Notes: generated by a model not told the origin, from the sequence alone. A DNA stretch of 64,000 nucleotides from an uncultured Pseudomonadota bacterium (GCA_963847705.1 CAWKBC010000035.1:1-64000), one strand, 5' to 3'; counted from the first letter of the stretch, positions 37,270 through 49,364 are shown. Numbers and translations are program-made.

Positions 37270-37545
37270 ATGGGGATCGACGGAAAATCACTGTCAGAGA
37301 AGGTCACGCGCCTGGTGTTGGAGTACGCACAGACGCCCCCGCCCGAGGCGTCAGCGGGTGCGCCGCTCGATGGAAAGCTGACCTTGCGCGGAGATCTCGC
37401 CGTCGACTCGCTGGCCCTCGTCTCGCTGACGATTCGGCTGGGAGAGGAGCTGGGGGTCGACGTCGTCGAGAGTGGTCTCGATTTCAGTCAACTGGAGACG
37501 ATGGGAGATCTCTTGGCCGTCGCCGAGAAACTCAATCGCCATTGA
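37270..37545 (+). CDS. Acyl carrier protein
   Basis: AGGAG RBS, ATG 37270, 91 aa, DLAVDSLALVSL (Ppant Ser), TMGDL. Confidence 0.85.
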   Translation: MGIDGKSLSEKVTRLVLEYAQTPPPEASAGAPLDGKLTLRGDLAVDSLALVSLTIRLGEELGVDVVESGLDFSQLETMGDLLAVAEKLNRH

Positions 37546-37745: not shown

Positions 37746-37907
37746 ATGGACGCGAACAAAGACACGGTGACCGAGGGCAGCGAGAAGATCGGCCGGAACT
37801 CTGATGTGGCACCAGTCGCGGGAAACGCCGCCGACGAGGGTGAGTTCAAGATCGAGATCCGAAAGCTGGAAGTCCCGGTCCGCCCGCGCGGCGTCCTGGC
37901 TGAATAG
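37746..37907 (+). CDS. Putative RiPP precursor/scaffold peptide 1 (53 aa)
   Basis: MDANKDTVTEGSEKIGRNSDVAPVAGNAADEGEFKIEIRKLEVPVRPRGVLAE. Last 21 aa identical to the peptide at 42640. Confidence 0.85.
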   Translation: MDANKDTVTEGSEKIGRNSDVAPVAGNAADEGEFKIEIRKLEVPVRPRGVLAE

Positions 37908-37964: not shown

Positions 37965-39905
37965 ATGACCGCGACGAACCTCGCGAAGGCGCCGGTTTAC
38001 TTTGGGACACCCGAGCGGCCTCTGTTCGGGTTCTACCACCCTCCCGCTGGCTCCCGGGTGCGCGGGACGGCGGTGTTGCTCTGCAATCCGCTGGGAGATG
38101 ATCTGATCCGCGCGCATCGTCCCTTCCGGCACCTGGCCGAGGATCTGTCTGCCGCGGGATTCCCCGTCCTTCGGTTCGACTTCGACGGGACGGGAGACTC
38201 GTCGGGAGACGAGCGGGATCCGAATCGCGTGGCCACCTGGCGCGCCGACGTCGGCCGCGCCGCGGCCGACTTGCGCGCGCGCAGCGGCGTGGAGCCGCTG
38301 GCCCTGGTCGGTCTCAGACTGGGGGGAACGTTTGCTGCGTTGGGCGCGGCGGATCTGGGCGGCGTCGACGCGCTCGTTCTGTGGGGCGCTTACGACAACG
38401 GCGGCGCGTTCGTTTCGGAGGCCACGAAAGCTCACAAGATGCACGTGATGCTGCAGCCGACCAGCTTCTCCGGTGGACCGCCGGCCAGCGACGGGCAAGA
38501 GGCGCTCGGCTTCCTGCTGGCGACGCAGACGATCGCCGATCTCGAGGCGATCGATCTCCTGTCGCTGCCCCGCTCGCCCGCCAGACGGACGCTGGTCCTC
38601 GACACCGCGAACGTCGAAACCGACAGCCCGCTGGTGGCGAAGCTGCGGGAGCTGGGTGGGGCGGTCACCCACCGTCACATCCCGGGCAACAAGTTCTTGA
38701 TCATCTCACCCCACCAGTCGGAGGTCCCCACGGCGGCCCTTTCGGCGATCACGGGTTGGCTTTCCGAGGAGTGCCCGTTCGCCGACCGCAGCTCGGCGAC
38801 CAGCGCGATGGCCGGTTCGGCGACCAGCGCGATGGCCGGTTCGGCGACCAGCGCCATGGCCGGTTCGGCGACCAGCGCCATGCCCGGCGTGGCGACCAGC
38901 GCGAGGCCCGGCCAGGCGTCCAACGACGCGAAGACGCCCCCGGCATGGGACGCGGCCCGCACGGTGAACAACCTGCGCGAGCGCCCCGTGTTCTTCGGGG
39001 GGCCTCGAAAACTGTTCGGGATCCTCACGGTGCCGCCGTCGAGCACCGCCCGACCCGATCTTCCGGCCATCATCCTGCTCAACGCCGGCACCGTTCATCG
39101 GGTGGGCTCGCACCGGCTCTACGTGCCGATGGCGCGCAAGTGGGCGGCGCTCGGGTTCCACGTGCTCCGCGTCGATCTCTCGGGGATTGGCGACAGCCCG
39201 GTTCCCGAGGGTCACCCCGAGAACCTCACCTACCCGCGCGAGGGCCTCGAGGACGCACGCGCCGCGATGGACTTCCTCGAGGACACCACGACGAGCGGGA
39301 AGTTCGTCGTCGCCGGTCTCTGTTCGGGCGGCGACATCGCCTTCCAGCTGGGGTTCAAGGAGCCGCGCGTGGCGAGCGCCATCATGATGAACCCGCGCAC
39401 TTTCTTGGTGAACGACCTGAGCATGGTCGATTCGTACGAACGGGCGCGCTGGTCCCAGCAGGCCGTGGCCCACAGCGACTCCTGGAAGGATCTTCTGAGC
39501 GGTGACGTGAACCTCACCCGCGCGTTCAAGCTGGCTGCACCGAAGGTGAAGGACCTGGTCGTGAGGCGTGCGAAACGAGCCATCACGGACCTCATGGGCG
39601 CCGTGCTCCCCAACGCGCCGGCCACCGAACAGCGTCGGGAGACCGACGTTCCCTACTGCCTCCGGTCGATGGCCGAACGCGGGGTCGACACCTACCTGTT
39701 CGTCACCGAGCACGACCCCGGCGTCGACTACGTCGATGCGAACTACGGACCGGCCATGAGCGCGCTCGCGTCGATCCCCAACTTCCGTCGAACCGACGTC
39801 AAGGGGACCGACCACACCTTCACCGCGCGCTGGGCACAGGAGCAGGTCAGCGCGATGATCACCGAGCACCTGACGCGACGATTCTTGGCGGCCCGGGCCG
39901 CGTAA
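37965..39905 (+). CDS. Tandem alpha/beta-hydrolase (putative acyltransferase, EPS-associated type)
   Basis: Domain 1: LRFDFDGTGDS, LVGLRLGG. Domain 2: NAG..HRVG..RLYV, RVDLSGIGDS, GLCSGG, DHTF. Confidence 0.85.
   Translation: MTATNLAKAPVYFGTPERPLFGFYHPPAGSRVRGTAVLLCNPLGDDLIRAHRPFRHLAEDLSAAGFPVLRFDFDGTGDSSGDERDPNRVATWRADVGRAAADLRARSGVEPLALVGLRLGGTFAALGAADLGGVDALVLWGAYDNGGAFVSEATKAHKMHVMLQPTSFSGGPPASDGQEALGFLLATQTIADLEAIDLLSLPRSPARRTLVLDTANVETDSPLVAKLRELGGAVTHRHIPGNKFLIISPHQSEVPTAALSAITGWLSEECPFADRSSATSAMAGSATSAMAGSATSAMAGSATSAMPGVATSARPGQASNDAKTPPAWDAARTVNNLRERPVFFGGPRKLFGILTVPPSSTARPDLPAIILLNAGTVHRVGSHRLYVPMARKWAALGFHVLRVDLSGIGDSPVPEGHPENLTYPREGLEDARAAMDFLEDTTTSGKFVVAGLCSGGDIAFQLGFKEPRVASAIMMNPRTFLVNDLSMVDSYERARWSQQAVAHSDSWKDLLSGDVNLTRAFKLAAPKVKDLVVRRAKRAITDLMGAVLPNAPATEQRRETDVPYCLRSMAERGVDTYLFVTEHDPGVDYVDANYGPAMSALASIPNFRRTDVKGTDHTFTARWAQEQVSAMITEHLTRRFLAARAA
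38793..38912 (+). repeat. 5 x 24-bp repeat in the hydrolase interdomain linker (SATSAMAG)
   Basis: tcggcgaccagcgc[g/c]atggccggt units, degenerating toward the 3' end. Confidence 0.9.
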
Positions 39906-40909
39906 TGGCCTTCAAGGCGCAAGCTGCGCTCGTCAAGGCGGGACCCCTCGAGCCGTTCGAATACGAGCCGCAGGAGCTGGGCGCGACGGACGTCGAGATC
40001 GAGATCTCGCACTGCGGCCTCTGCCACAGCGACATCCACCTGATCGACGACGGCTGGGGGCGCAGCAAGTACCCGCTGGTCCCGGGCCACGAGATCGCCG
40101 GGACTGTCGCGGCCGCAGGCTCGGCCGTCACTCACCTCACCGTCGGCCAGCGGGTCGGCGTCGGCTGGCAGCGAAGCGCTTGCCTGGAGTGCGATCTCTG
40201 CCTGGGCGGCGAAGAGAACCTGTGTCGCAAGCAGCAGGCGACCTGCATGGGCCATCACGGCGGCGTGGCCAACCGGATTCGCCTCGACGGCCGGTTCGCC
40301 TTCGCGCTGCCCGAGACGATGGACAGCGCCGTGGCCGCGCCGCTCCTCTGTGGCGGCGTCACCGTCTTCGCGCCGATGCGGCGCTTCGGGATCGGCGCCA
40401 CCAGCAGCGTGGCGGTGATCGGGATCGGCGGCCTCGGGCACATGGCGCTGCTGATGCTGCGCGCGCTCGGCTGCGAAACGACCGCCTTTTCGACCTCCGC
40501 CGCGAAGAAGGACGAAGCGCTGGCGATGGGAGCTGACCACTTTGCCTCCTCGACCGATCCGAGCGACATCCGTAAACACTTCGGCCGCTTCGATCTGGTG
40601 CTGTCGACCGTTCACGCCCGGCTCGACTGGACCACCTATCTCCAGACGCTGAGGGCCAACGGGACGCTCTGCCTGCTGGGGATGCCGCCGGGTGTCATTC
40701 AATTCCCGCCCGCCCTGCTGGTGACCGGCCAGCGCTCGATCACGGGCAGCGACATCGGCAGCCGGAAGGTCATTCGGGAGATGCTCGCCTTCGCGGCGCG
40801 CCACAAGGTGGCCCCGCAGATCGAGCGGATGCCGATGGCCGAGGCCAACGCGGCCTTGACGCGGCTGCGGCAGAACCAGGTGCGGTACCGCGTCGTCCTG
40901 GAGAATTAG
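39905..40909 (+). CDS. Zn-dependent NAD(P) alcohol dehydrogenase (cinnamyl-alcohol DH / YahK-Ahr family)
   Basis: CGLCHSD, PGHEI, CLECDLC..NLC, APLLCGG, GIGGLGH, YRVVL. TAATG coupling to the hydrolase. Confidence 0.92.
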   Translation: MAFKAQAALVKAGPLEPFEYEPQELGATDVEIEISHCGLCHSDIHLIDDGWGRSKYPLVPGHEIAGTVAAAGSAVTHLTVGQRVGVGWQRSACLECDLCLGGEENLCRKQQATCMGHHGGVANRIRLDGRFAFALPETMDSAVAAPLLCGGVTVFAPMRRFGIGATSSVAVIGIGGLGHMALLMLRALGCETTAFSTSAAKKDEALAMGADHFASSTDPSDIRKHFGRFDLVLSTVHARLDWTTYLQTLRANGTLCLLGMPPGVIQFPPALLVTGQRSITGSDIGSRKVIREMLAFAARHKVAPQIERMPMAEANAALTRLRQNQVRYRVVLEN

Positions 40910-40972: not shown

Positions 40973-42560
40973 ATGGAAATGAACGTTCAACTCTTCGACA
41001 GCACGTTGCGTGACGGCACGCAGAGCGAGGGTCTCTCCCTCTCCGTGGAGGACAAGCTCAAGATCTCGCGCCTGCTGGACGGCTTCGGCATCCACTACAT
41101 CGAGGGGGGCTACCCCGGGTCGAACCCGAAGGACGTCGAGTTCTTCCAGCGCGCCAAGTCGGTCACCTTCCGCCACGCCAAGCTGACCGCATTCGGGATG
41201 ACCCGCAAGCCGGGCGGGCGCGCCGACAGCGATCCGATCCTGGCGGCGATGGTGGCCGCCGAGACCCCCGCGGTCGCCGTGGTCGGAAAGACCTGGACGT
41301 TGCACGTCACCAAGATCGTCGGCACCACGCTGGAAGAGAACCTGGCGATGGTCGCGGACAGCGTCGCCTTCCTCAAGCAGAAGGGGCGCGAGGTGGTGTT
41401 CGACTGCGAGCACTTCTTCGACGGCTTCCGCGCCGATCCCGACTACGCGCTGGCGGTGGTCAAGGCCGCCTCGGCGGCGGGGGCCGACTGGATCGCCATG
41501 TGCGACACCAACGGCGGCAGCCTGCCGGGGACGATCACCGAGGTGGTTGGCGCGGTCAAACGGGCGGTCCTCACCCCGCTCGGGATTCACACCCACAATG
41601 ACTGCGACGTGGCGGTGGCCAACGCCTTCGCCGGGATCGAGGCCGGCTGTACCCAGGTGCAGGGGACGATGAACGGCTGGGGCGAGCGGTGCGGGAACGC
41701 CAATTTGATCTCGGTCATCGCCGGGCTGCAACTGAAGATGGGCCGGCGCTGCGTGCCGGAGGAGAACCTGGCCCGCCTCACCGAGCTCTCGCGGGCGGTC
41801 AGCGAGATCGCCAACATTCGCCCGCGCGCGCACGCCCCCTACGTGGGTCACTCGGCGTTCGCGCACAAAGGGGGGATGCACGTCGCCGCGGTGGAGAAGA
41901 TCCCCGCCAGCTACGAGCACATCGTCCCCGAGCGGGTCGGCAATCGGCGCCACATCGTCGTCTCGGAGCTGTCGGGGCGCGGCAACGTCCGCATGCGCGC
42001 CGGGGAGCTGGGAATCGACGTGCAAGGGAACGAAAAGCGCGTCCTCGAGCACATCAAGGAGCTGGAGAGCCAGGGCTACCAGTTCGAGGCGGCCGAGGGG
42101 TCGTTCGAGCTGCTCGGGCGACGCAGCCAGCCAAGCTACGTGGCCCCCTTCGACGTCCTCGACCTGGTCGTCATCTCGGAGCGGCGCCGCGGCAACTCGA
42201 TGTTCGCCGAGGCGACCGTGAAGCTGAAGATCGGCAACGAGAATCGTCCACGAGGTCGCGGAGGGGTCCGGGCCGGTGCACGCGCTCGACGGGGCCTTCC
42301 ACAAGGCGTTGAACCCTCACTTTCCGACGCTGCGCGACGTTCGCCTGGCCGACTACAAGGTTCGAATCCTAGATCCTGACGCGGCGACCAGCGCCAAGAC
42401 GCGCGTCCTCATCGAGGCGGCGCGCGGCGAGGAGCGCTGGAGCACCATCGGCGTGTCGCAGAACATCATCGAGGCCAGCGCCACAGCCCTGGCGGACGCT
42501 CTGGAGTTGCCGCTGGCCCGCCTCGCCTCCGCCCGGATTCCCGAGAGTGCCGCCGGCTGA
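40973..42560 (+). CDS. cimA: Citramalate synthase (LeuA family), apparent +1 indel at 42242-42243
   Basis: DSTLRDGTQ, YIEGGYPGSNPKD, GIHTHND, GERCGN, AFAHKGGMH. Removing one A joins ORFs 40973-42379 and 42276-42560 as NEIVHEVAEGSGPVHALD..DYKVRIL..WSTIGVSQNIIEAS (528 aa). Confidence 0.88.
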
Positions 42561-42639: not shown

Positions 42640-42795
42640 ATGGACGCCAACAAGAACCAGACCACCGACACCAAAGACACCATCATCCCGACCGACGGCG
42701 CGCCAGCGCCCGCGACCGGAGATGACGCCGAGTTCAAGATCGAGATCCGGAAGCTGGAAGTTCCGGTCCGCCCGCGCGGCGTCCTGGCAGAATAG
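42640..42795 (+). CDS. Putative RiPP precursor/scaffold peptide 2 (51 aa)
   Basis: GGGAG RBS. MDANKNQTTDTKDTIIPTDGAPAPATGDDAEFKIEIRKLEVPVRPRGVLAE. Confidence 0.85.
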   Translation: MDANKNQTTDTKDTIIPTDGAPAPATGDDAEFKIEIRKLEVPVRPRGVLAE

Positions 42796-42849: not shown

Positions 42850-44538
42850 TCAGTCCGCGCGCTCGATCCGGAGTGCTCCGCGGGAATTTCGAAACGGGGC
42901 GAACGCAGCGTGAAGCTTGCGCCGCTGGATCTTGCCGGTGTGCGTGCGGGGAATCGGCGTCGTGCCGTAGAGAATGATCTTGGGGCGCGCGTCGAGCGGC
43001 ATCTCGCCCACCACCTTGGTGAGGCGGGCGCGCAGCTCGTCGGCGAGCTCTTCATTCTCGAGGTAGAGGCCGATCTCCTCGCCGTGAACGTCGTGCGGAA
43101 ATCCGAGCGCGACCAGCCGGCCCTCGATCTCCGGCAGCTCGGTCACGATCCGCCGCTCGATCGCCAAAGGGCTGAACTTGTCGCCGTCCCGGATGATCGT
43201 CTCCTTGATCCGTCCGGTGATGAAGAACGCCGGCCCGCCCGCCGAGGCTTGGGGCTCGCCGGCTTGCTGTCCGCCTGCGGAGGCGAGGGGCCCGCCCGCG
43301 GAGCCTCGAGGCTGGCCTGCCTGCTGAAAGAAACCCTCGTCGCCCGTCCGCAGCCAGCCGTCTGCCCCGAGCGTCGCCGCCGTCGCGCCTTCATCACGAA
43401 AGTAAGACAGCATGGTGCTGTGGCCGCGCACGCACAGCTCGCCGCGCTGGTCGGCCGGCAGCGTCGCCCCATCGGCGCCGACGACCTTCACCTCGGTCCC
43501 CGGCAGCGGGCTCCCGATGCAGGTCAGCTCTCCGCCGTAAAGGAGCCGCCGTCGTTCATCCTCGGCCAGATCGGCCGGAAGGCAGCAGGCGAAGTTGGTG
43601 TACTCGGACAGCCCCCAACCTTGCAGCAGACGGAGGTTGGTCTTCTCCTCGAAGGCGCGGGCCAGACTCACGGTCAGGGGCGCCGACGAGACGAGAACTG
43701 CGCGCAGCGTCGGGAGCTTCTCGGCGCGGACGCCGAGCTGCAGGAGAGGCTGCAGCAGCGTCGGGACCACGCTGGTCAAGGTGACCGACTCGACCCGGAG
43801 GACCTCGCCCCAGGCGAACGGATCGAACCGCTCCATGAAGACGAGGTGCCCGCCGGTGGTCAGCGTGGTCATCAGGCCGAACCCCAGCGCGTGCGCGTGG
43901 TAGAGCGGCAGCACCGCCAGCTGCGTCTCGTCCTCGAAGCGAAAATTGAGCGCCATGCTCCAGGCGTTGGCGAGCAGGCTCCCTTGCCCCAGCGCGACGC
44001 CTTTGGGATTCCCGGTGGTCCCGGAGGTGTAAAGGACGATCGCCATCTGCTTCTCCAGCGACCTCGCGGCCGCGGGCGCCGCCGCCGCGGGAGGCGGTGA
44101 CGCGCCGCCGCCGCCGGCATCGGGCACCGTCTCGTCCTCGAAGGCACAGACGACGGCGGGACGGGCCACCAGCCAATCGAGCAGCTCACGCGCGCCGAAG
44201 ACGAGACGCGCCTCCGAGTGCGCCAGGATGTAGTCCCAGTCCGCGGGCGGCGTCGTTGGATTGAGCGGGACGACGGCGGCGCCGAGCTGCATGGCTGCCA
44301 GAAAGAGCGCTGGGACCTCCAGCCGATTGGGCGAGAGGACCGCGACGCAATCTCCCTGCCGCACGCCGAGCTCGTCCCTCAGCCGGCGCGTGAATCGCTC
44401 GACAGCGCCGAGCAGCTCCCCGTAGGTCCAGTGCCCCGCGCGTGTCTTGCCTTTGTAAAAGGTGAGCGCCGGCCGTCCCGCAGGGAGGCGGGCGAGACCG
44501 TCCAGCAGGGCGGGGATGTCCTCGAAGCGTGTCGTCAT
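42850..44538 (-). CDS. Adenylate-forming (ANL) acyl-CoA/acyl-ACP ligase
   Basis: LYTSGTTGNPKG, QGWGLSE, WLRTGD, ITGRIKE, PRTHTGKIQR. Confidence 0.92.
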   Translation of the reverse strand: MTTRFEDIPALLDGLARLPAGRPALTFYKGKTRAGHWTYGELLGAVERFTRRLRDELGVRQGDCVAVLSPNRLEVPALFLAAMQLGAAVVPLNPTTPPADWDYILAHSEARLVFGARELLDWLVARPAVVCAFEDETVPDAGGGGASPPPAAAAPAAARSLEKQMAIVLYTSGTTGNPKGVALGQGSLLANAWSMALNFRFEDETQLAVLPLYHAHALGFGLMTTLTTGGHLVFMERFDPFAWGEVLRVESVTLTSVVPTLLQPLLQLGVRAEKLPTLRAVLVSSAPLTVSLARAFEEKTNLRLLQGWGLSEYTNFACCLPADLAEDERRRLLYGGELTCIGSPLPGTEVKVVGADGATLPADQRGELCVRGHSTMLSYFRDEGATAATLGADGWLRTGDEGFFQQAGQPRGSAGGPLASAGGQQAGEPQASAGGPAFFITGRIKETIIRDGDKFSPLAIERRIVTELPEIEGRLVALGFPHDVHGEEIGLYLENEELADELRARLTKVVGEMPLDARPKIILYGTTPIPRTHTGKIQRRKLHAAFAPFRNSRGALRIERAD

Positions 44539-44545
44539 CGTCTCA

Positions 44546-45137
44546 TCACCGCGCGGGCCCGAACGCGTAGGCGTAGGAGGCCTGAATCCGCTCCGAGAGG
44601 ACGCTCAGAATCCTCCATCGAGTTTCTCCAGTCGATGTCGGGCGCCGCCTCTTCCAGCGTGGTGACGCCGAAGTAGAGCGGTTGGAAGCCCATCTTGACG
44701 TAGGCCTTGGCGTAGTCGGCGGCGACGGCCATCTCGTCGTCGAACACGGCCGCCCGGTGGCCGAGGCCAGGATAGTTGGACTTGGCGAACAATCCGACCT
44801 TACCGGCGTCGTTCCAGTGCAGCGCCACGCAGTGGCCGCACTCCTCGCCCGACACGGGATCGATGCGATGGATGGCCAGGAGGCGCCGTTTGACGTCGCC
44901 GAAGAGAAGCTCCAGCAGCCCGTAGGCGAGGATGGCGGAGTCGATGCAGGTGATCTTGGGGGCGTGCAGGGACGACCGGACCGACTGCACGCGGTAAGCG
45001 GTCCGCCAGTCCTCCAGATAGCCGATTCCGTCCAGCACGCGCCGGATGTCCTCTGGCGACTCGAACGGCCCGCCGCCGCCGAGCTCCCGAATGCGGCGGA
45101 ACTCGGCCTCTCCGTACGTGAGCGGCCCTGAGGACAA
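44546..45137 (-). CDS. Transglutaminase/papain-like Cys-His protein (apparent +1 indel at 44609-44610)
   Basis: ITCIDSAILA, ECGHCVAL, GLFAKSNYPGL. Removing one base gives ...DWRNSMEDLSVLSERIQASYAYAFGPAR* (TGA 44546-44548). Confidence 0.6.
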
Positions 45138-45146
45138 GCCCGCGGC

Positions 45147-46145
45147 CTACTCGGAGAGCAGATCGCTCGGCGCGCGCGGCATGGTCGGGAAGCGGGCGTA
45201 GAAGGTGTCGATTCCGTCCATGAAGAGATAGAGGTGCTCGGCCATCGAGCGGACGATGTTGAGCGCGTCGTCCACCTCGGCCCGCGTGAGCGGCGGAATG
45301 CTCTGGCACATCTCCAGGAAGACGTTCTCGTGCCCGAGCTTCTGGTCGGCGTTGGTGTGCGCGATGAAGGAGTCGATCACCTTGTCGGTGTACGGGTAGT
45401 GCTTGCGCATCGCCGCGTAGAAGTCGTCGATCGAGCTGGCGTCCTTGTCGTCGCCGGTGTTCTCGGTCATCTGCAGGAGCTCGTTCCCGGCGTAGTAGCC
45501 GAACGAGTTGCGCCCGGCCGACTCGCTGAGGAAGTTCACCAGCGCGCGCGTGCTCGGCAGCGGCTGCGCCCGCAGCACGGTGTCGTCCGGGAAGAGGCTG
45601 CGCAGCCCCTTGCGGTAGATGTCGCCGTGGTTGTACTCCTCGATGAAGTGCCGCGCGAGGTGCGGCATCATCTCGGGCGTGGCGTTGGCGGCCGCGATGG
45701 CCATGTGCTCGAACGCCCCCTCGATGTAGTGGTACTTCTCGAAGGCGAACCCCAGCACCTGCGCGCGCGAAGCCTTGCCGGTCACGATCTTCTCCCACAG
45801 CGGGTGGTCGTAGATCGGCTGCAGCCAGTGGGTCACGTACTTGCGGTGGATCTCGTAGAACTGCTCGCCGGAGATCCGCTCACCGTCGTCGTCCTTGAAC
45901 GCCAGCACGCCGGTCTGACCGAGCTGCTGCGAGAGCGACTGGACCCGCTTGGGTGACTCCGCGATCCGCTCGGCGATGCTCCCCACGCCGGTGGAGCCGT
46001 CGAGATAAGGCAGCATCTTGTCGAGCAGCCGCGCGGCCGCCCCCTCGAGCAAGACCTCTTGACCCATGTACTCGATGGCCAGCTTGTCGGCGTCACGTCG
46101 CACGACCTTGGCCGTGCGCTTCAGAACAGGTAATTGCGTCTGCAT
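45147..46145 (-). CDS. RRE-like wHTH domain fused to heme-oxygenase-like diiron oxidase (PqqC/CADD-like) #2
   Basis: N-terminal beta-strands plus LDGSTGVGSIAERI..VQSLSQQLGQTGVL; HPLW, EKYHY, HFIEEYNH, AHTNADQKLGH. Confidence 0.8.
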   Translation of the reverse strand: MQTQLPVLKRTAKVVRRDADKLAIEYMGQEVLLEGAAARLLDKMLPYLDGSTGVGSIAERIAESPKRVQSLSQQLGQTGVLAFKDDDGERISGEQFYEIHRKYVTHWLQPIYDHPLWEKIVTGKASRAQVLGFAFEKYHYIEGAFEHMAIAAANATPEMMPHLARHFIEEYNHGDIYRKGLRSLFPDDTVLRAQPLPSTRALVNFLSESAGRNSFGYYAGNELLQMTENTGDDKDASSIDDFYAAMRKHYPYTDKVIDSFIAHTNADQKLGHENVFLEMCQSIPPLTRAEVDDALNIVRSMAEHLYLFMDGIDTFYARFPTMPRAPSDLLSE

Positions 46146-46157
46146 GGGGTCCCCTTA

Positions 46158-47153
46158 CTAATCGAGCAACTTGCTGAACTTCGGCCGCGGCATCGGGTTC
46201 GACTCGACGCCGTAGTACTTCTCGATGCTGTCCGTCCAGAGCCAGATGTGCTCGATGAGCTGGTGGCCGTACTCGAGGACGCGCCCGGCGCGCGTAGCCG
46301 GGATCTCCTTGACGGTGCTGAGGATGTCGAGGAACAGATCGGAGTGCTGGTACTGCACGTCCAGGTCGAGGTGCGCGTAGATGGGCGCGATTGACTCCGG
46401 CGGCAGCTTGTAAAGCTCGGCGCACTTTTCGTAGTACGGGTTGTAGGCGCCGCGGTTGACGGTGGTCCCCTCGAGAACTGCCGAGCAGATCGAGTAGGCG
46501 AGGATGTCTTCACGGGCGGCCTGGCGCATGAAGTTCGACAGCGCCAGCGACATGGGAAGCGGGACCGAGTTGATCACGCTCTCCTCGCTGAAGCCGAGCG
46601 CCTTGAGCGCCTTGAGGAAGTAGTGGTAGTGGTTCCACTCCTCCGCGTAGTGCTTGGCGCGCATGTTCTTGATCGACTTCTCCTTGGTGTGAGCACAGGA
46701 GAGCGGCATGTGGCGGTTGGCGTTCCGCGTGTAGTGATAGAGCTCGATGAGCCACCCCGAGTACATGCGGCGCGAGCCGTTCCCGCTGGTCATCCGCTCC
46801 CAGAACGGATGCGAGAACGCCTCGTCGAGCCAGCTCGGCAAGATCTTGTTGAAGAGCGTGTGGAGCTCGACGCCGCTCAACGTCGCCGGAACCGCGTCCT
46901 GGCGATAGAGGAGACCGGCGCTCTCCAGCGCCTTCGTCAGCCGGCCGAGGCGCGCCTCGTCCATCCCCAGATCGGCCGCGATCTCCTTCTGCGACTGGAC
47001 GCTCGGAACCCGCTCCGCCAACTTTTCGTAAAGGGCAAACTCACGGTTGCCGAGCTGGACCTCGCGGTCGCTCAGTCTGACGGATACGCTGTCCCCCTTC
47101 GGAGCCGCCTCATAGACTCTCCGAACCCCAAATTCTTGACCCATGGTTGCCAT
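46158..47153 (-). CDS. RRE-like wHTH domain fused to heme-oxygenase-like diiron oxidase (PqqC/CADD-like) #1
   Basis: N-terminal SQKEIAADLG..LGRLTKALESAGLL; HPFW, ELYHY, HYAEEWNH, VLE, AHLDLDVQYQH. Confidence 0.8.
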   Translation of the reverse strand: MATMGQEFGVRRVYEAAPKGDSVSVRLSDREVQLGNREFALYEKLAERVPSVQSQKEIAADLGMDEARLGRLTKALESAGLLYRQDAVPATLSGVELHTLFNKILPSWLDEAFSHPFWERMTSGNGSRRMYSGWLIELYHYTRNANRHMPLSCAHTKEKSIKNMRAKHYAEEWNHYHYFLKALKALGFSEESVINSVPLPMSLALSNFMRQAAREDILAYSICSAVLEGTTVNRGAYNPYYEKCAELYKLPPESIAPIYAHLDLDVQYQHSDLFLDILSTVKEIPATRAGRVLEYGHQLIEHIWLWTDSIEKYYGVESNPMPRPKFSKLLD

Positions 47154-47207: not shown

Positions 47208-47807
47208 TCATCGAACAATTTTGAGGCGGGACTCCAAATCCCTCTTCACCTCCGGCCACTCCGCATCGAGGATGCTGTAATAGACCGAATCTCGAACCCT
47301 CCCGCTGGACGTGATCATGTGACTGCGCAGAGTGCCCTCTTCCCGGGCGCCGATTCGGCGGATGGCGGCGCGGGAGCGCTCGTTCAGGGCGTCGGTCTTG
47401 AGCTCGACGCGAATGCAGCCGAGAGTCTCGAAAGCATGCTGCAAAAGCAGGTACTTAGCCTCGGTATTGGCGGCGGTGCGCTGCCAGGCTCGCCCGAGCC
47501 AGGTCCAGCCGATCTCGACCCGGCGGTGCGCCGGTTCGATGGCGGCAAATCGGGTGCTGCCGATGGCCTGGCCGGTCGCCCTGTCGATGACGGCGAAGGG
47601 AAGGGCCCGGCCCGCCGTCCTCTCGGCGAGGGCGAACGTGATGTAGGCACCCATGTCGGCGGCCGTCTGGACCGGTTTGGGGGCCCATTGCCACAGAGCG
47701 GCATCCAGCCCGACGGCGCAAAGCGCCCCGTGGTGGGCCTCGGCGAGCGGCTCCAGCCGAATCCGCGCCCCCTCGAGCGTCGTCGCTGTCAACCCGGTCT
47801 CCTTCAT
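47208..47807 (-). CDS. GNAT acetyltransferase (RimJ/RimL family)
   Basis: GGAGG RBS; LEGARIRLEPL, IGSTR, VEIGWTWL, NTEAKYLLL, EEGTLR, RDSVYYSI. Confidence 0.9.
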   Translation of the reverse strand: MKETGLTATTLEGARIRLEPLAEAHHGALCAVGLDAALWQWAPKPVQTAADMGAYITFALAERTAGRALPFAVIDRATGQAIGSTRFAAIEPAHRRVEIGWTWLGRAWQRTAANTEAKYLLLQHAFETLGCIRVELKTDALNERSRAAIRRIGAREEGTLRSHMITSSGRVRDSVYYSILDAEWPEVKRDLESRLKIVR

Positions 47808-47840
47808 GCGAGCCTCCCTTTTTAACAGCTCATGCCATCC

Positions 47841-49364
47841 ATGAGATCCACCATCACCTCCCTCGGGCATTCCGGGCTGGACATCCGTCTTGGATCCGCC
47901 CGGATCGTCTGCGACCCCTGGCTCTCCCAGCGTGGCGCCTACCTCGCCAGCTGGCACCAGTTTCCCCGCAACGATCACCTGGTGGCGAGCGATCTGCACG
48001 ACACCCCGAACCTCTTCATCAGCAGCCCCCGTCCGGATCACTTCGACGTCGAGACGTTGCGCGGATTCCCCAGGACCGTGCGCGTCATCCTTCCCAGGCT
48101 GGCCTCCCCCACGCTGGCCCAGCAGGTGCGTGCGCTCGGGTTCAGCCAGGTCCTGGAGCTCGGCGATGGCGAGCCGGTCGACCTCGGGGAGGGCGCGCGG
48201 CTTTTTCTGTTGGCCTCGCGGGCCCAGCACCTCCTGGGCGCCGCGCTGGTGATCGAACGCGAGGGCCAGGTGATCGTCGATCAAAACGACTGCCCGCTGG
48301 ATGATGCGGCGCTCGACCGGATCGCGGCGTTGAAGCCGGCCGTCCACCTCCTTCAGTTCTCGGGCGCCTCTTACTTCCCCGCGGTCTACGACTTCTCGCC
48401 GGAGCGAATGAAGACGGAGGTCGAACGGGAGGTCGCTGTCATCGCGCGGCGTTTCTTCGACACGGCCACGCGGGCCGGCGCGCGCCACGTCGTCCCCTCG
48501 GGGGGCCCCCCCTGCTTCGTCGACGAACGCGGGTTCGAGCTGAACTTCGGGGGGAGCATCTTCTTCGACGCCGACGAGCTCCTGGCGCGCGCCGCGCGCG
48601 AGGCGCCGCAGCTCCGCGACCGGCTGCACCCCCTCTATCCCGGAGACGTCGCCGCGCGCGACGGCGGAGACTGGAGCTTCGCCGGCCACAGACCGTATGA
48701 CGACAAGCGCAGCTACCTCGCTGCCCACCGCGACCTGCGGGGCCCGGTGCGCCAGAGCTACCTGACCGAGCGGCGCGCGGAGGCGGAGCCGGTCGACAGC
48801 AAGGACTTCCGATCTTACTTGCGCGATTTCTTCCAGTTCGAGGACATGACCGCGGACCTGAGAACCATCATTCAGTTTCGCCTCACCGACGGGCCGTCGG
48901 TCTGGATCGACTTTCGAAAAAAGCCGTACCGCTACCTGACGGAGTGCGAGGAGCCGGCCGCTCACGTCCTGACCCTGGAGAGCGCCTGGGTGAGCCTGGT
49001 GTTGCAGGGGAAGCTGACCTGGCACGAGCTTCTGATGAGCCGGGAGGTGACCATCACGCGCGATCCCGATCGCGAGGTCCCCAAGCTGATGCAACACTTC
49101 GACTACCGTCACGACGAGGCGCTGTTCGATCTGGTGCGGCTCCTCGATCCCGCGCTCATCACGGTGCAGGACGAGCAGATGGAGTACGTCTGCCAGCGCT
49201 TCTGTCCTCATCGCGGGCGCGACCTCGAGTACGCGGTCATCGAGCGCGGCGTGCTCACCTGCACCGCCCACGGCTGGCGGTTCGATCTCCGAAAGGGGGG
49301 GCGCTGCCTCTGGGGCGGTGAGACGCCGCTGCTGGTGAAAGAGATTCGCCCGCTCAGCCGGTAG
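47841..49364 (+). CDS. MBL-fold protein with C-terminal Rieske [2Fe-2S] domain
   Basis: LGHSG, CDPWL, SW.QFP, DQND, PSGGPPCF; Rieske CPH...CTAHGWRFD. Start 47841 or 47832. Confidence 0.8.
   Translation: MRSTITSLGHSGLDIRLGSARIVCDPWLSQRGAYLASWHQFPRNDHLVASDLHDTPNLFISSPRPDHFDVETLRGFPRTVRVILPRLASPTLAQQVRALGFSQVLELGDGEPVDLGEGARLFLLASRAQHLLGAALVIEREGQVIVDQNDCPLDDAALDRIAALKPAVHLLQFSGASYFPAVYDFSPERMKTEVEREVAVIARRFFDTATRAGARHVVPSGGPPCFVDERGFELNFGGSIFFDADELLARAAREAPQLRDRLHPLYPGDVAARDGGDWSFAGHRPYDDKRSYLAAHRDLRGPVRQSYLTERRAEAEPVDSKDFRSYLRDFFQFEDMTADLRTIIQFRLTDGPSVWIDFRKKPYRYLTECEEPAAHVLTLESAWVSLVLQGKLTWHELLMSREVTITRDPDREVPKLMQHFDYRHDEALFDLVRLLDPALITVQDEQMEYVCQRFCPHRGRDLEYAVIERGVLTCTAHGWRFDLRKGGRCLWGGETPLLVKEIRPLSR

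Follow-up and report, generated by a model that had tools for sequence, protein, structure and literature searches.

Why would a bacterium encode, side by side, two predicted heme-oxygenase-like diiron oxidases (HDOs) that each appear to carry a domain for binding a peptide? The question is raised by a 64,000-nucleotide stretch of DNA from an uncultured Pseudomonadota bacterium (GCA_963847705.1 CAWKBC010000035.1:1-64000; hereafter the window), in which two open reading frames (ORFs) on the minus strand, HDO1 (46158..47153, 331 aa) and HDO2 (45147..46145, 332 aa), lie 12 bases apart. A preliminary description of this DNA had taken them for divergent paralogues of about 330 aa, each joining an RRE (recognition element of RiPPs, peptides that the ribosome makes and that are modified after translation) to an HDO domain, and had proposed either a heterodimer or two successive oxidations of the same peptide, with one copy perhaps structural. 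The pair proved real, and a shared peptide substrate gained support from a conserved precursor found in the cluster; missing from that description were the peptide itself and the protease, ligase, carrier and hydrolase encoded with the pair, which together suggest what the two enzymes may be for.

Two unequal putative oxidases with predicted RRE-type N-terminal domains

HDO1 and HDO2 share 25% identity in an alignment of 309 columns (E 1e-37), and a profile-profile comparison relates them with a probability of 99.9% over 317 columns. Both match PF14518 (Haem_oxygenas_2) and PF03070 (TENA_THI-4) above the Pfam cut-offs; a scan of NCBIfam returned no equivalog fitting either protein, and the nearest solved sequence is 3dde, an uncharacterised protein of the heme oxygenase (HO) fold. 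The E.YHY, H..EE..H and H...D....H motifs noticed earlier are present in both, as E137-x-x-H140-Y, H168-x-x-E171-E172-x-x-H175 and H261-x3-D265-x4-H270 in HDO1, and as E136-x-x-H139-Y, H166..E170..H173 and H263..D267..H272 in HDO2. In an AlphaFold2 model of HDO2 (pLDDT 86), residues 13-78 of the N-terminal domain form three strands followed by three helices (DSSP) and the remainder is a helical bundle. This bundle (residues 91-332) takes the HO fold, matching 3dde (Z 21.6) and CADD (Z 20.1). Heme oxygenases, TenA, HrmI, PqqC and UndA match as well (Z 17-22 for these together with 3dde and CADD), and so do FlcD and BesC (Z 16-21 for a set that also takes in 3dde, CADD, HrmI and UndA).

The N-terminal domains of both proteins are predicted to be of the RRE type, that of HDO2 from its modelled fold and that of HDO1 by homology. 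The HDO2 domain (residues 1-85), in which the LDG...G.L pattern described earlier falls at residues 48-81, is closest to the RRE of PbtF (8t19; Z 11.4, rmsd 2.7, 84 residues) and also resembles that of TbiB1 (5v1u; Z 9.0); the non-RRE winged domain 8hkr scores Z 10.0, a small margin below the best RRE. The HDO1 domain (about residues 8-86) is homologous to it (hhalign 95.8%, E 7e-9), two control stretches giving 0.03% and 0.2%. A DNA-binding helix-turn-helix (HTH) or another non-RRE fold had been named as the competing outcome; the only HTH matches, of the MarR/IclR Pfam families to HDO1, are weak and below cut-off, and the HDO2 model remains closest to an RRE. PqqD gave no Pfam match to the HDO1 domain at E 0.1.

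The metal ligands make both proteins likely diiron oxidases, of unequal design. The set E172, H175, E228, H261, D265 and H270 of HDO1, assigned by alignment, is invariant in the 99-101 copies aligned, and Cys223 is conserved. HDO2 keeps E170, H173, H263, D267 and H272, and has Gln225 at the position equivalent to E228, so that the difference first seen as VLE versus NELLQ is genuine: E228 aligns with Q225, not with E222. A scan with an HDO2 alignment provided the loci for this comparison (32 from GTDB and the best 80 of 139 from metagenomes), and the position is Gln in 112/112 of them, leaving HDO2 without the canonical second-site Glu; E136, H139 and E142 of HDO2 belonged to the patterns used to fetch loci and were left out of the conservation counts. 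The invariant residues E222 and E228 of HDO2, one turn away, might substitute as ligands.

The same asymmetry recurs far from this locus. A profile search of 1.84 billion representatives returned 847 RRE-HDO clusters (50% identity) at E 0.001, and the best 150 of these include 34 two-unit fusions. With gapped rows dropped, the N-terminal units of the fusions carry Glu in 35/35 cases and the C-terminal units (n=34) Gln in 28, Arg in 4 and Glu in 2, while single units (n=98, including the two queries) have Glu in 47, Gln in 35, His in 13 and another residue in 3. Since the fusions repeat the split between a Glu-bearing N-unit and a C-unit with Gln or Arg, HDO1 and HDO2 would seem to embody an old and ordered division of labour between unequal partners. 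The split is not universal: in the distant clusters whose short ORFs end in VHL (see below), the units mostly retain Glu. A Cys five residues ahead of the Glu position is found in 68/84 Glu-type units versus 15/84 of the others; its representative in HDO1, Cys223, might stand at the position of the catalytic Cys of TenA, though the alignments to TenA-like structures ended before the helix concerned.

Whether HDO2 is itself a catalyst is a question apart from what the pathway makes. With its metal site incomplete, it could be a structural or peptide-holding partner of HDO1 or else help in redox chemistry, as would fit the missing second-site Glu throughout the 112 loci and in 32/34 fusion C-units, and the dedicated partner described for MboA (PMC13185094). 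We nevertheless consider it rather unlikely that HDO1 alone is catalytic. All 84/84 non-Glu units among the best 150 representatives retain the other five ligands, and the residues that mainly replace Glu, Gln (64) and His (13), can bind metal; the catalytic domain of HDO2 is, moreover, conserved like that of HDO1 (mean column conservation 0.82 vs 0.84). With five of six ligands kept everywhere, HDO2 is unlikely to be a bare scaffold and more likely carries an altered metal site than none, which weakens the earlier suggestion that one copy may be structural.

A conserved precursor peptide

Two short ORFs on the plus strand of the window encode closely related peptides, copy A (37746..37907, 53 aa) and copy B (42640..42795, 51 aa), which share their last 21 residues. 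Copy B consists of a variable acidic N-terminal part, a leader-like EFKIEIRKLE and the end PRGVLAE, and the family as a whole follows this plan: over 48-58 residues, an acidic and variable N-terminus leads into EFK[ILV]x[IV]RKL, and PRGVLA follows without variation. The search for further members used the leader motif alone, so that the C-terminal end was not built into the query. It found 55 peptides in 50/112 loci, and 55/55 end in PRGVLA followed by E (46), D (2) or DG (7) and the stop. In the organism's own genome the leader motif has three matches, two of which are the peptides above. The same end is kept in a Cellvibrionaceae locus despite HDOs that are only 37-48% identical.

Distant RRE-HDO loci on plasmids are also preceded by short ORFs, two of them with a similar leader, and these have other ends (MCG, VHL). 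These loci support the assignment of the conserved upstream stretch as the putative RRE site and of the C-terminus as the putative substrate.

These distant loci are of two kinds. Plasmids of B. cereus (L120:8673-8756) and R. etli (L124:7444-7647) carry a single RRE-HDO with an upstream short ORF that has a K-I-x-[VI]-K leader and an MCG end; the B. cereus copy has MFS and Fur genes as neighbours. Robbsia (L121:8618-8701), Tistrella (L122:5534-5716) and Rhodococcus (L123:7452-7523) have two- or three-unit RRE-HDOs and upstream short ORFs ending in VHL, and the Robbsia and Rhodococcus clusters contain aminotransferase, EamA, MFS or GNAT genes.

Gene content and distribution of the cluster

Behind HDO1 and HDO2, in the same orientation, come a 200-aa ORF to which no Pfam family matches and then an AMP-forming ligase. 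The former (44535..45137, minus strand) encodes a predicted cysteine protease of the vasohibin/CPR-C4 type with the triad C64, H102 and L125. A model of the intact copy from locus L007 (pLDDT 93) matches CPR-C4 (Z 19.4), with a second structure match at Z 13.9, and vasohibin (Foldseek E 2e-8), and an HMM comparison likewise gives CPR-C4 (E 8e-13); the Cys, His and Leu are invariant in 98/98, 93/93 and 92/92 aligned copies. Vasohibins take off a C-terminal residue, and the pocket of CPR-C4 is described as positively charged (PMC9108980). Searching plasmids with the protease gave no match. In the window, one extra base near 44610 alters the last ~20 residues of the protease, and another near 42242 interrupts the synthase described below; both are absent in three close relatives and in three contigs each of a soil DNA run and are probably assembly errors. 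At L035:11109-13265, protease and ligase share one 719-aa frame, a natural fusion or an assembly error.

The ligase (42850..44538, minus strand) is of the acyl-CoA-synthetase type and lacks the amino-acid-binding motif; its nearest solved relatives, oxalate-CoA and malonyl-CoA ligases, are distant (best E 1.4e-40). Facing it on the plus strand are, in order, an acyl carrier protein (ACP; 37270..37545) with a DSL motif and a weak PP-binding match below cut-off (E 0.0025), peptide A, a fused double alpha/beta hydrolase (37965..39905), a Zn-dependent alcohol dehydrogenase or aldehyde reductase of the YahK/cinnamyl-alcohol dehydrogenase type (39905..40909), an HMGL-like synthase (40973..42560) and peptide B. 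The two halves of the hydrolase resemble exosortase-associated hydrolases 2 and 1, both below cut-off. Its nucleophile position is Arg in the N-half, which is thus blocked, and Cys in the C-half, which suggests thioester transfer by the latter. The linker between the halves (38800-38950) contains a short repeated ATSAMAGS-like unit, in place of which relatives' contigs have a shorter stretch. The synthase, of the cimA/leuA type (the name cimA being our own reading), occurs in this clade only, and its membership of the system is uncertain.

Where the flanks allow the test, HDO1 lies next to HDO2 in 32/32 GTDB and 69/71 metagenome loci, with the protease gene in 31/31 and 64/65 and the AMP ligase in 31/31 and 48/48, respectively. 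Of the GTDB loci, 19 have flanks of 9 kb or more in both directions; in these, the peptide is found in 17 by tblastn (18 including Cellvibrionaceae), the dehydrogenase in 17, the hydrolase in 16 and the ACP in 15. The GTDB loci, mostly of Myxococcota, are for the most part labelled Polyangia, Myxococcales or uncultured (delta)proteobacteria, with Dormibacteria and one Cellvibrionaceae besides. Within the organism's own genus the pair occurs in 11/24 genomes, always as both genes, and would therefore be an accessory module; this, with the 32/32 adjacency and the 34 fusions among 150 representatives, supports an obligate pair. A phylum-wide sample of 400 other genomes gave 0 matches at E 1e-60, and 0/16 genomes outside the genus were positive in a draw of relatives; both are samples and no measure of absence.

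The Cellvibrionaceae locus (L037:4042-19471) shares the peptide end, the HDO pair, the protease and the ligase, and adds to them a second adenylation enzyme, two ACPs, two ketosynthase-III-like (KS-III-like) proteins, an AurF-like oxygenase, a short-chain dehydrogenase (SDR), an FAD oxidoreductase, a PLP lyase, a PaiB-family protein and two OsmC-like genes; the KS-III-like proteins and the SDR replace the hydrolase and the alcohol dehydrogenase. Ligases and carriers match in number, two and two in this locus, and a nonribosomal peptide synthetase (NRPS) with a second ACP in L010. There (L010:2381-8732), a C-A-T-TE NRPS, the second ACP and a second hydrolase lie directly upstream of HDO1; L021 has an NRPS near the cluster as well.

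A PaiB-family gene (PF04299) is present in 42/117 loci, mostly adjoining HDO1. NohD, a member of this family, dehydrates N-hydroxy amines, and PaiB itself is of unknown activity according to PMC12576811. In the organism's own genome the PaiB-family gene sits behind acetolactate synthase genes on another contig (L119:7870-11091), and in L024:348-8885 an operon of the ilv/leu type extends as far as PaiB and HDO1, which hints at an old tie to branched-chain amino acid synthesis.

In the window (47208-49364), HDO1 is flanked by a RimJ/L-type GNAT and a protein with beta-lactamase-fold, SCP2 and Rieske parts, in this clade only. The Rieske/beta-lactamase, GNAT and cimA genes were considered as core genes and rejected, as they occur in only 4, 5 and 6 of the 19 long GTDB loci. 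Clustering of flanking ORFs was noisy owing to shadow ORFs and serves as a lead only, and a scan for promoters and terminators found nothing exceeding shuffles. Contigs from RNA runs of relatives cover both HDO genes in 3/3 runs and peptide A in one; lacking a silent control, and with level and strand invisible, they were not counted as evidence.

A likely acceptor is suggested by the surroundings of the cluster, which in the window include glycosyltransferase-, AsnB- and flippase-like genes (assigned by similarity or by eye). A Pfam scan of 96 of 178 flanking ORFs from 22 loci found clear polysaccharide genes at 11/22. With a set of polysaccharide queries, at least one match was obtained in 18/36 loci of at least 15 kb versus 23/264 tiles of the organism's own genome, and at least two matches in 9/36 versus 5/264. 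Polysaccharide is thus the likeliest acceptor, though not the sole one. A second double hydrolase and ACP lie on another contig of the same genome (L118:9673-12872), with two hexapeptide acetyltransferases, glycosyltransferases and no HDOs.

A proposed pathway and its alternatives

Because the cluster combines peptide, protease, ligase, carrier and hydrolase, a small released product would suit it better than a finished large peptide. The account we prefer, to which we give something close to an even chance, is that the HDO pair oxidises the C-terminal end of the peptide, that the protease frees a small acid, and that this is passed on by ligase, carrier and hydrolase, in many cases probably to surface polysaccharide. 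The starting point is a peptide with a variable acidic N-terminal part, an EFKxxxRKL stretch and the end PRGVLA plus E, D or DG. As their folds suggest, the RRE domains would hold the peptide by its conserved stretch, delivering its last residues to the helical bundles. To judge from the ligands and fusions, HDO1, with a canonical diiron site, and HDO2, with an altered one, would then work as a constant pair whose oxidation most likely proceeds in two steps. There is precedent for HDOs acting on peptides in VarO (PMC6511847) and in MboA, whose target is the last residue, at the C-terminus, of a tripeptide (PMC13185094). The vasohibin-like protease, by analogy of fold, would cut at the C-terminal end. 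From the gene content, the AMP ligase might load the freed acid onto the ACP and the Cys-type half of the hydrolase transfer it, while the Zn-dehydrogenase, with the PaiB-family protein where present, might handle an aldehyde or hydroxylamine intermediate or by-product.

As to the residue oxidised, we lean tentatively towards the terminal Glu/Asp. Since nearly identical enzymes accompany peptides that end in E and in DG, the target may instead lie in R-G-V-L-A; within that stretch Val/Leu/Ala is a possible choice that we hold somewhat less readily, and Arg a doubtful one, for which VarO (PMC6511847) and MboA (PMC13185094) provide precedents. The enzyme differences at the two D-ended loci are inseparable from lineage. 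HDO2 had seemed to drift faster when E loci were compared with DG loci; this candidate signal was dropped, as the tree places L068 (DG) beside L070 (E).

Several observations count against the account given above. L068 and L070 have HDO1 and HDO2 that are nearly identical in trees, and no position of HDO2 or the protease tracks the DG end; both facts sit badly with the terminal Glu alone as product. A peptide used once is a costly source of polymer decoration. Locus L035 is without peptide, ACP, alcohol dehydrogenase and hydrolase within 10 kb, and the PaiB gene of the window's own genome lies on a different contig (C14). An ACP together with a hydrolase is also met where there are no HDOs, as on contig C30 of the same genome, so that these genes may form a general kit for polysaccharide acylation. 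Of the 22 loci in the Pfam scan, 5 showed only an Acetyltransf_6 GNAT and 6 no polysaccharide gene, and the control behind the enrichment figures is crude, with related loci, queries drawn from those loci and a single genome.

A more specific form of the same idea, which we find possible and hold with less confidence, is that the peptide is a sacrificial scaffold on which the asymmetric RRE-diiron pair builds a non-standard acyl unit, freed by the vasohibin-like exopeptidase and grafted onto cell-surface polysaccharide by the ACP line. The system would then belong, as a branch, to a large RRE-HDO superfamily not described before (the 847 clusters), with a shared leader type and differing cores.

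The product could also be a short acylated RiPP, in which the pair oxidises the core, the protease strips the leader, and the ligase, ACP and hydrolase (or the KS-III-like proteins) acylate a core of 4-7 residues. That PRGVLA is invariant and the last residue variable fits such a product, as do a ligase without amino-acid-binding motif that is closest to small-acid CoA ligases, and the ilv/leu genes adjoining the cluster in this clade and in L024. Lasso leader peptidases share a transglutaminase-like fold with the protease, and the two KS-III-like proteins, two ACPs and SDR of the Cellvibrionaceae locus recall the fatty-acylated RiPP clusters of the lipoavitides. Yet the nearest structures to the protease are vasohibin and CPR-C4, not lasso peptidases, and a recurrent exporter was seen neither in the neighbour clusters nor in the part of the flanking ORFs that was scanned (96 of 178), by contrast with the MFS or EamA genes of most distant RRE-HDO plasmid loci. 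We regard this alternative as unlikely.

Still less probable, in our view, is a reusable amide carrier after the manner of the pearlins or LysW, in which the AMP ligase joins a small amine to a terminal or side-chain carboxylate of the peptide, the pair oxidises this cargo, and the protease acts as an isopeptidase to recycle the peptide. Recycling would account for the cost of the peptide; an acidic residue follows the Ala in 55/55 peptides, though as E, D or DG; and the PaiB-family proteins, given the chemistry described for the family (PMC12576811), fit N-oxidation of an amine. However, if the single ligase of a cluster served the peptide, nothing would be left to load its single ACP, and no PEARL (a stand-alone LanB N-domain) was found in the cluster or in the flanking ORFs covered by the scan (96 of 178), the sole PF04738 gene of the genome being a full-length LanB-type dehydratase on another contig (C9; L125:508-3411).

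Finally, a reading of the pair as TenA/PqqC-type enzymes without metal, or as regulators that bind DNA, the peptide being incidental, would accord with the TENA_THI-4 and weak MarR/IclR matches, the database labels 'PqqC' and 'thiaminase' and the conserved Cys ahead of the Glu, and is made highly improbable by the conserved His/carboxylate ligands (six in HDO1, five in HDO2), the sub-threshold HTH matches and RRE-like model, the want of recurring pqq or thi genes nearby and the conservation of the peptide as far as Gammaproteobacteria.

Significance and comparison with known systems

The mostly open-access literature searched, supplements lying outside the search, yielded no account of either RRE-fused HDO pairs or the peptide motif. 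The combination of HDO pair and peptide cluster is apparently undescribed, a variant of peptide-scaffolded biosynthesis with an oxidase pair that is asymmetric family-wide. About a dozen HDOs are functionally validated, and the sole ribosomal-peptide case cited in the excerpted text of PMC13108848 rests on genetics. Here, the cluster provides an enzyme pair, a defined short substrate and downstream enzymes, making the chemistry testable by simple co-expression, and the Glu/Gln split across the family both presents a new variant of the metal site and allows the reason for HDO pairing to be tested. If the product does decorate exopolysaccharide, RiPP-type chemistry would be linked to cell-surface modification in uncultured soil Myxococcota.

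With other HDOs (CADD, UndA, HrmI, BesC, SznF, MboA; PF14518) the pair shares the seven-helix HO fold and, in HDO1, the set of three His and three carboxylates as described in PMC13108848. It departs from them in its N-terminal RRE, its ribosomal precursor, its fixed pairing of paralogues and its H-x3-D-x4-H spacing; the Glu-to-Gln site of HDO2 is not among the variants listed in the excerpted text of the same paper (3H/3C, 3H/4C and mononuclear). VarO of the thiovarsolin pathway (PMC6511847) is likewise a heme-oxygenase-like protein genetically tied to oxidation of a ribosomal peptide, namely Arg desaturation. It is, however, a single protein in a YcaO/TfuA cluster for which that account gives no dedicated protease, ligase-ACP or partner HDO, and 'RRE' does not appear in the excerpted text; the comparison is by description, not sequence.

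Pearlin pathways (TglA/TmoA; PMC9303977) resemble the present cluster in their acidic peptide of ~50 residues and, on the pathway proposed here, in RRE-guided C-terminal oxidation and release by a protease. Since the cluster has no PEARL, it is not a pearlin pathway and its cargo would be ribosomally encoded; it further differs in having an HDO instead of a DUF692 enzyme, a vasohibin-like protease and a subsequent hand-off to an ACP. PqqC and PqqD, including their PqqCD fusion (5vrd, 1otv), also bring an HO-like fold and an RRE together, within a route from a peptide to a small molecule. PqqC is metal-independent (as stated in PMC13108848), whereas the present enzymes retain metal ligands and carry the RRE at the N-terminus, and their neighbourhood contains no other pqq genes. 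Lastly, the third gene has the fold and the Cys-His-Leu triad of CPR-C4 and vasohibin (7pjo, 6nvq; PMC9108980); no natural substrate of CPR-C4 is named in the excerpted text of that paper, whereas here a candidate peptide is co-encoded, which may be a natural substrate for the bacterial vasohibin family.

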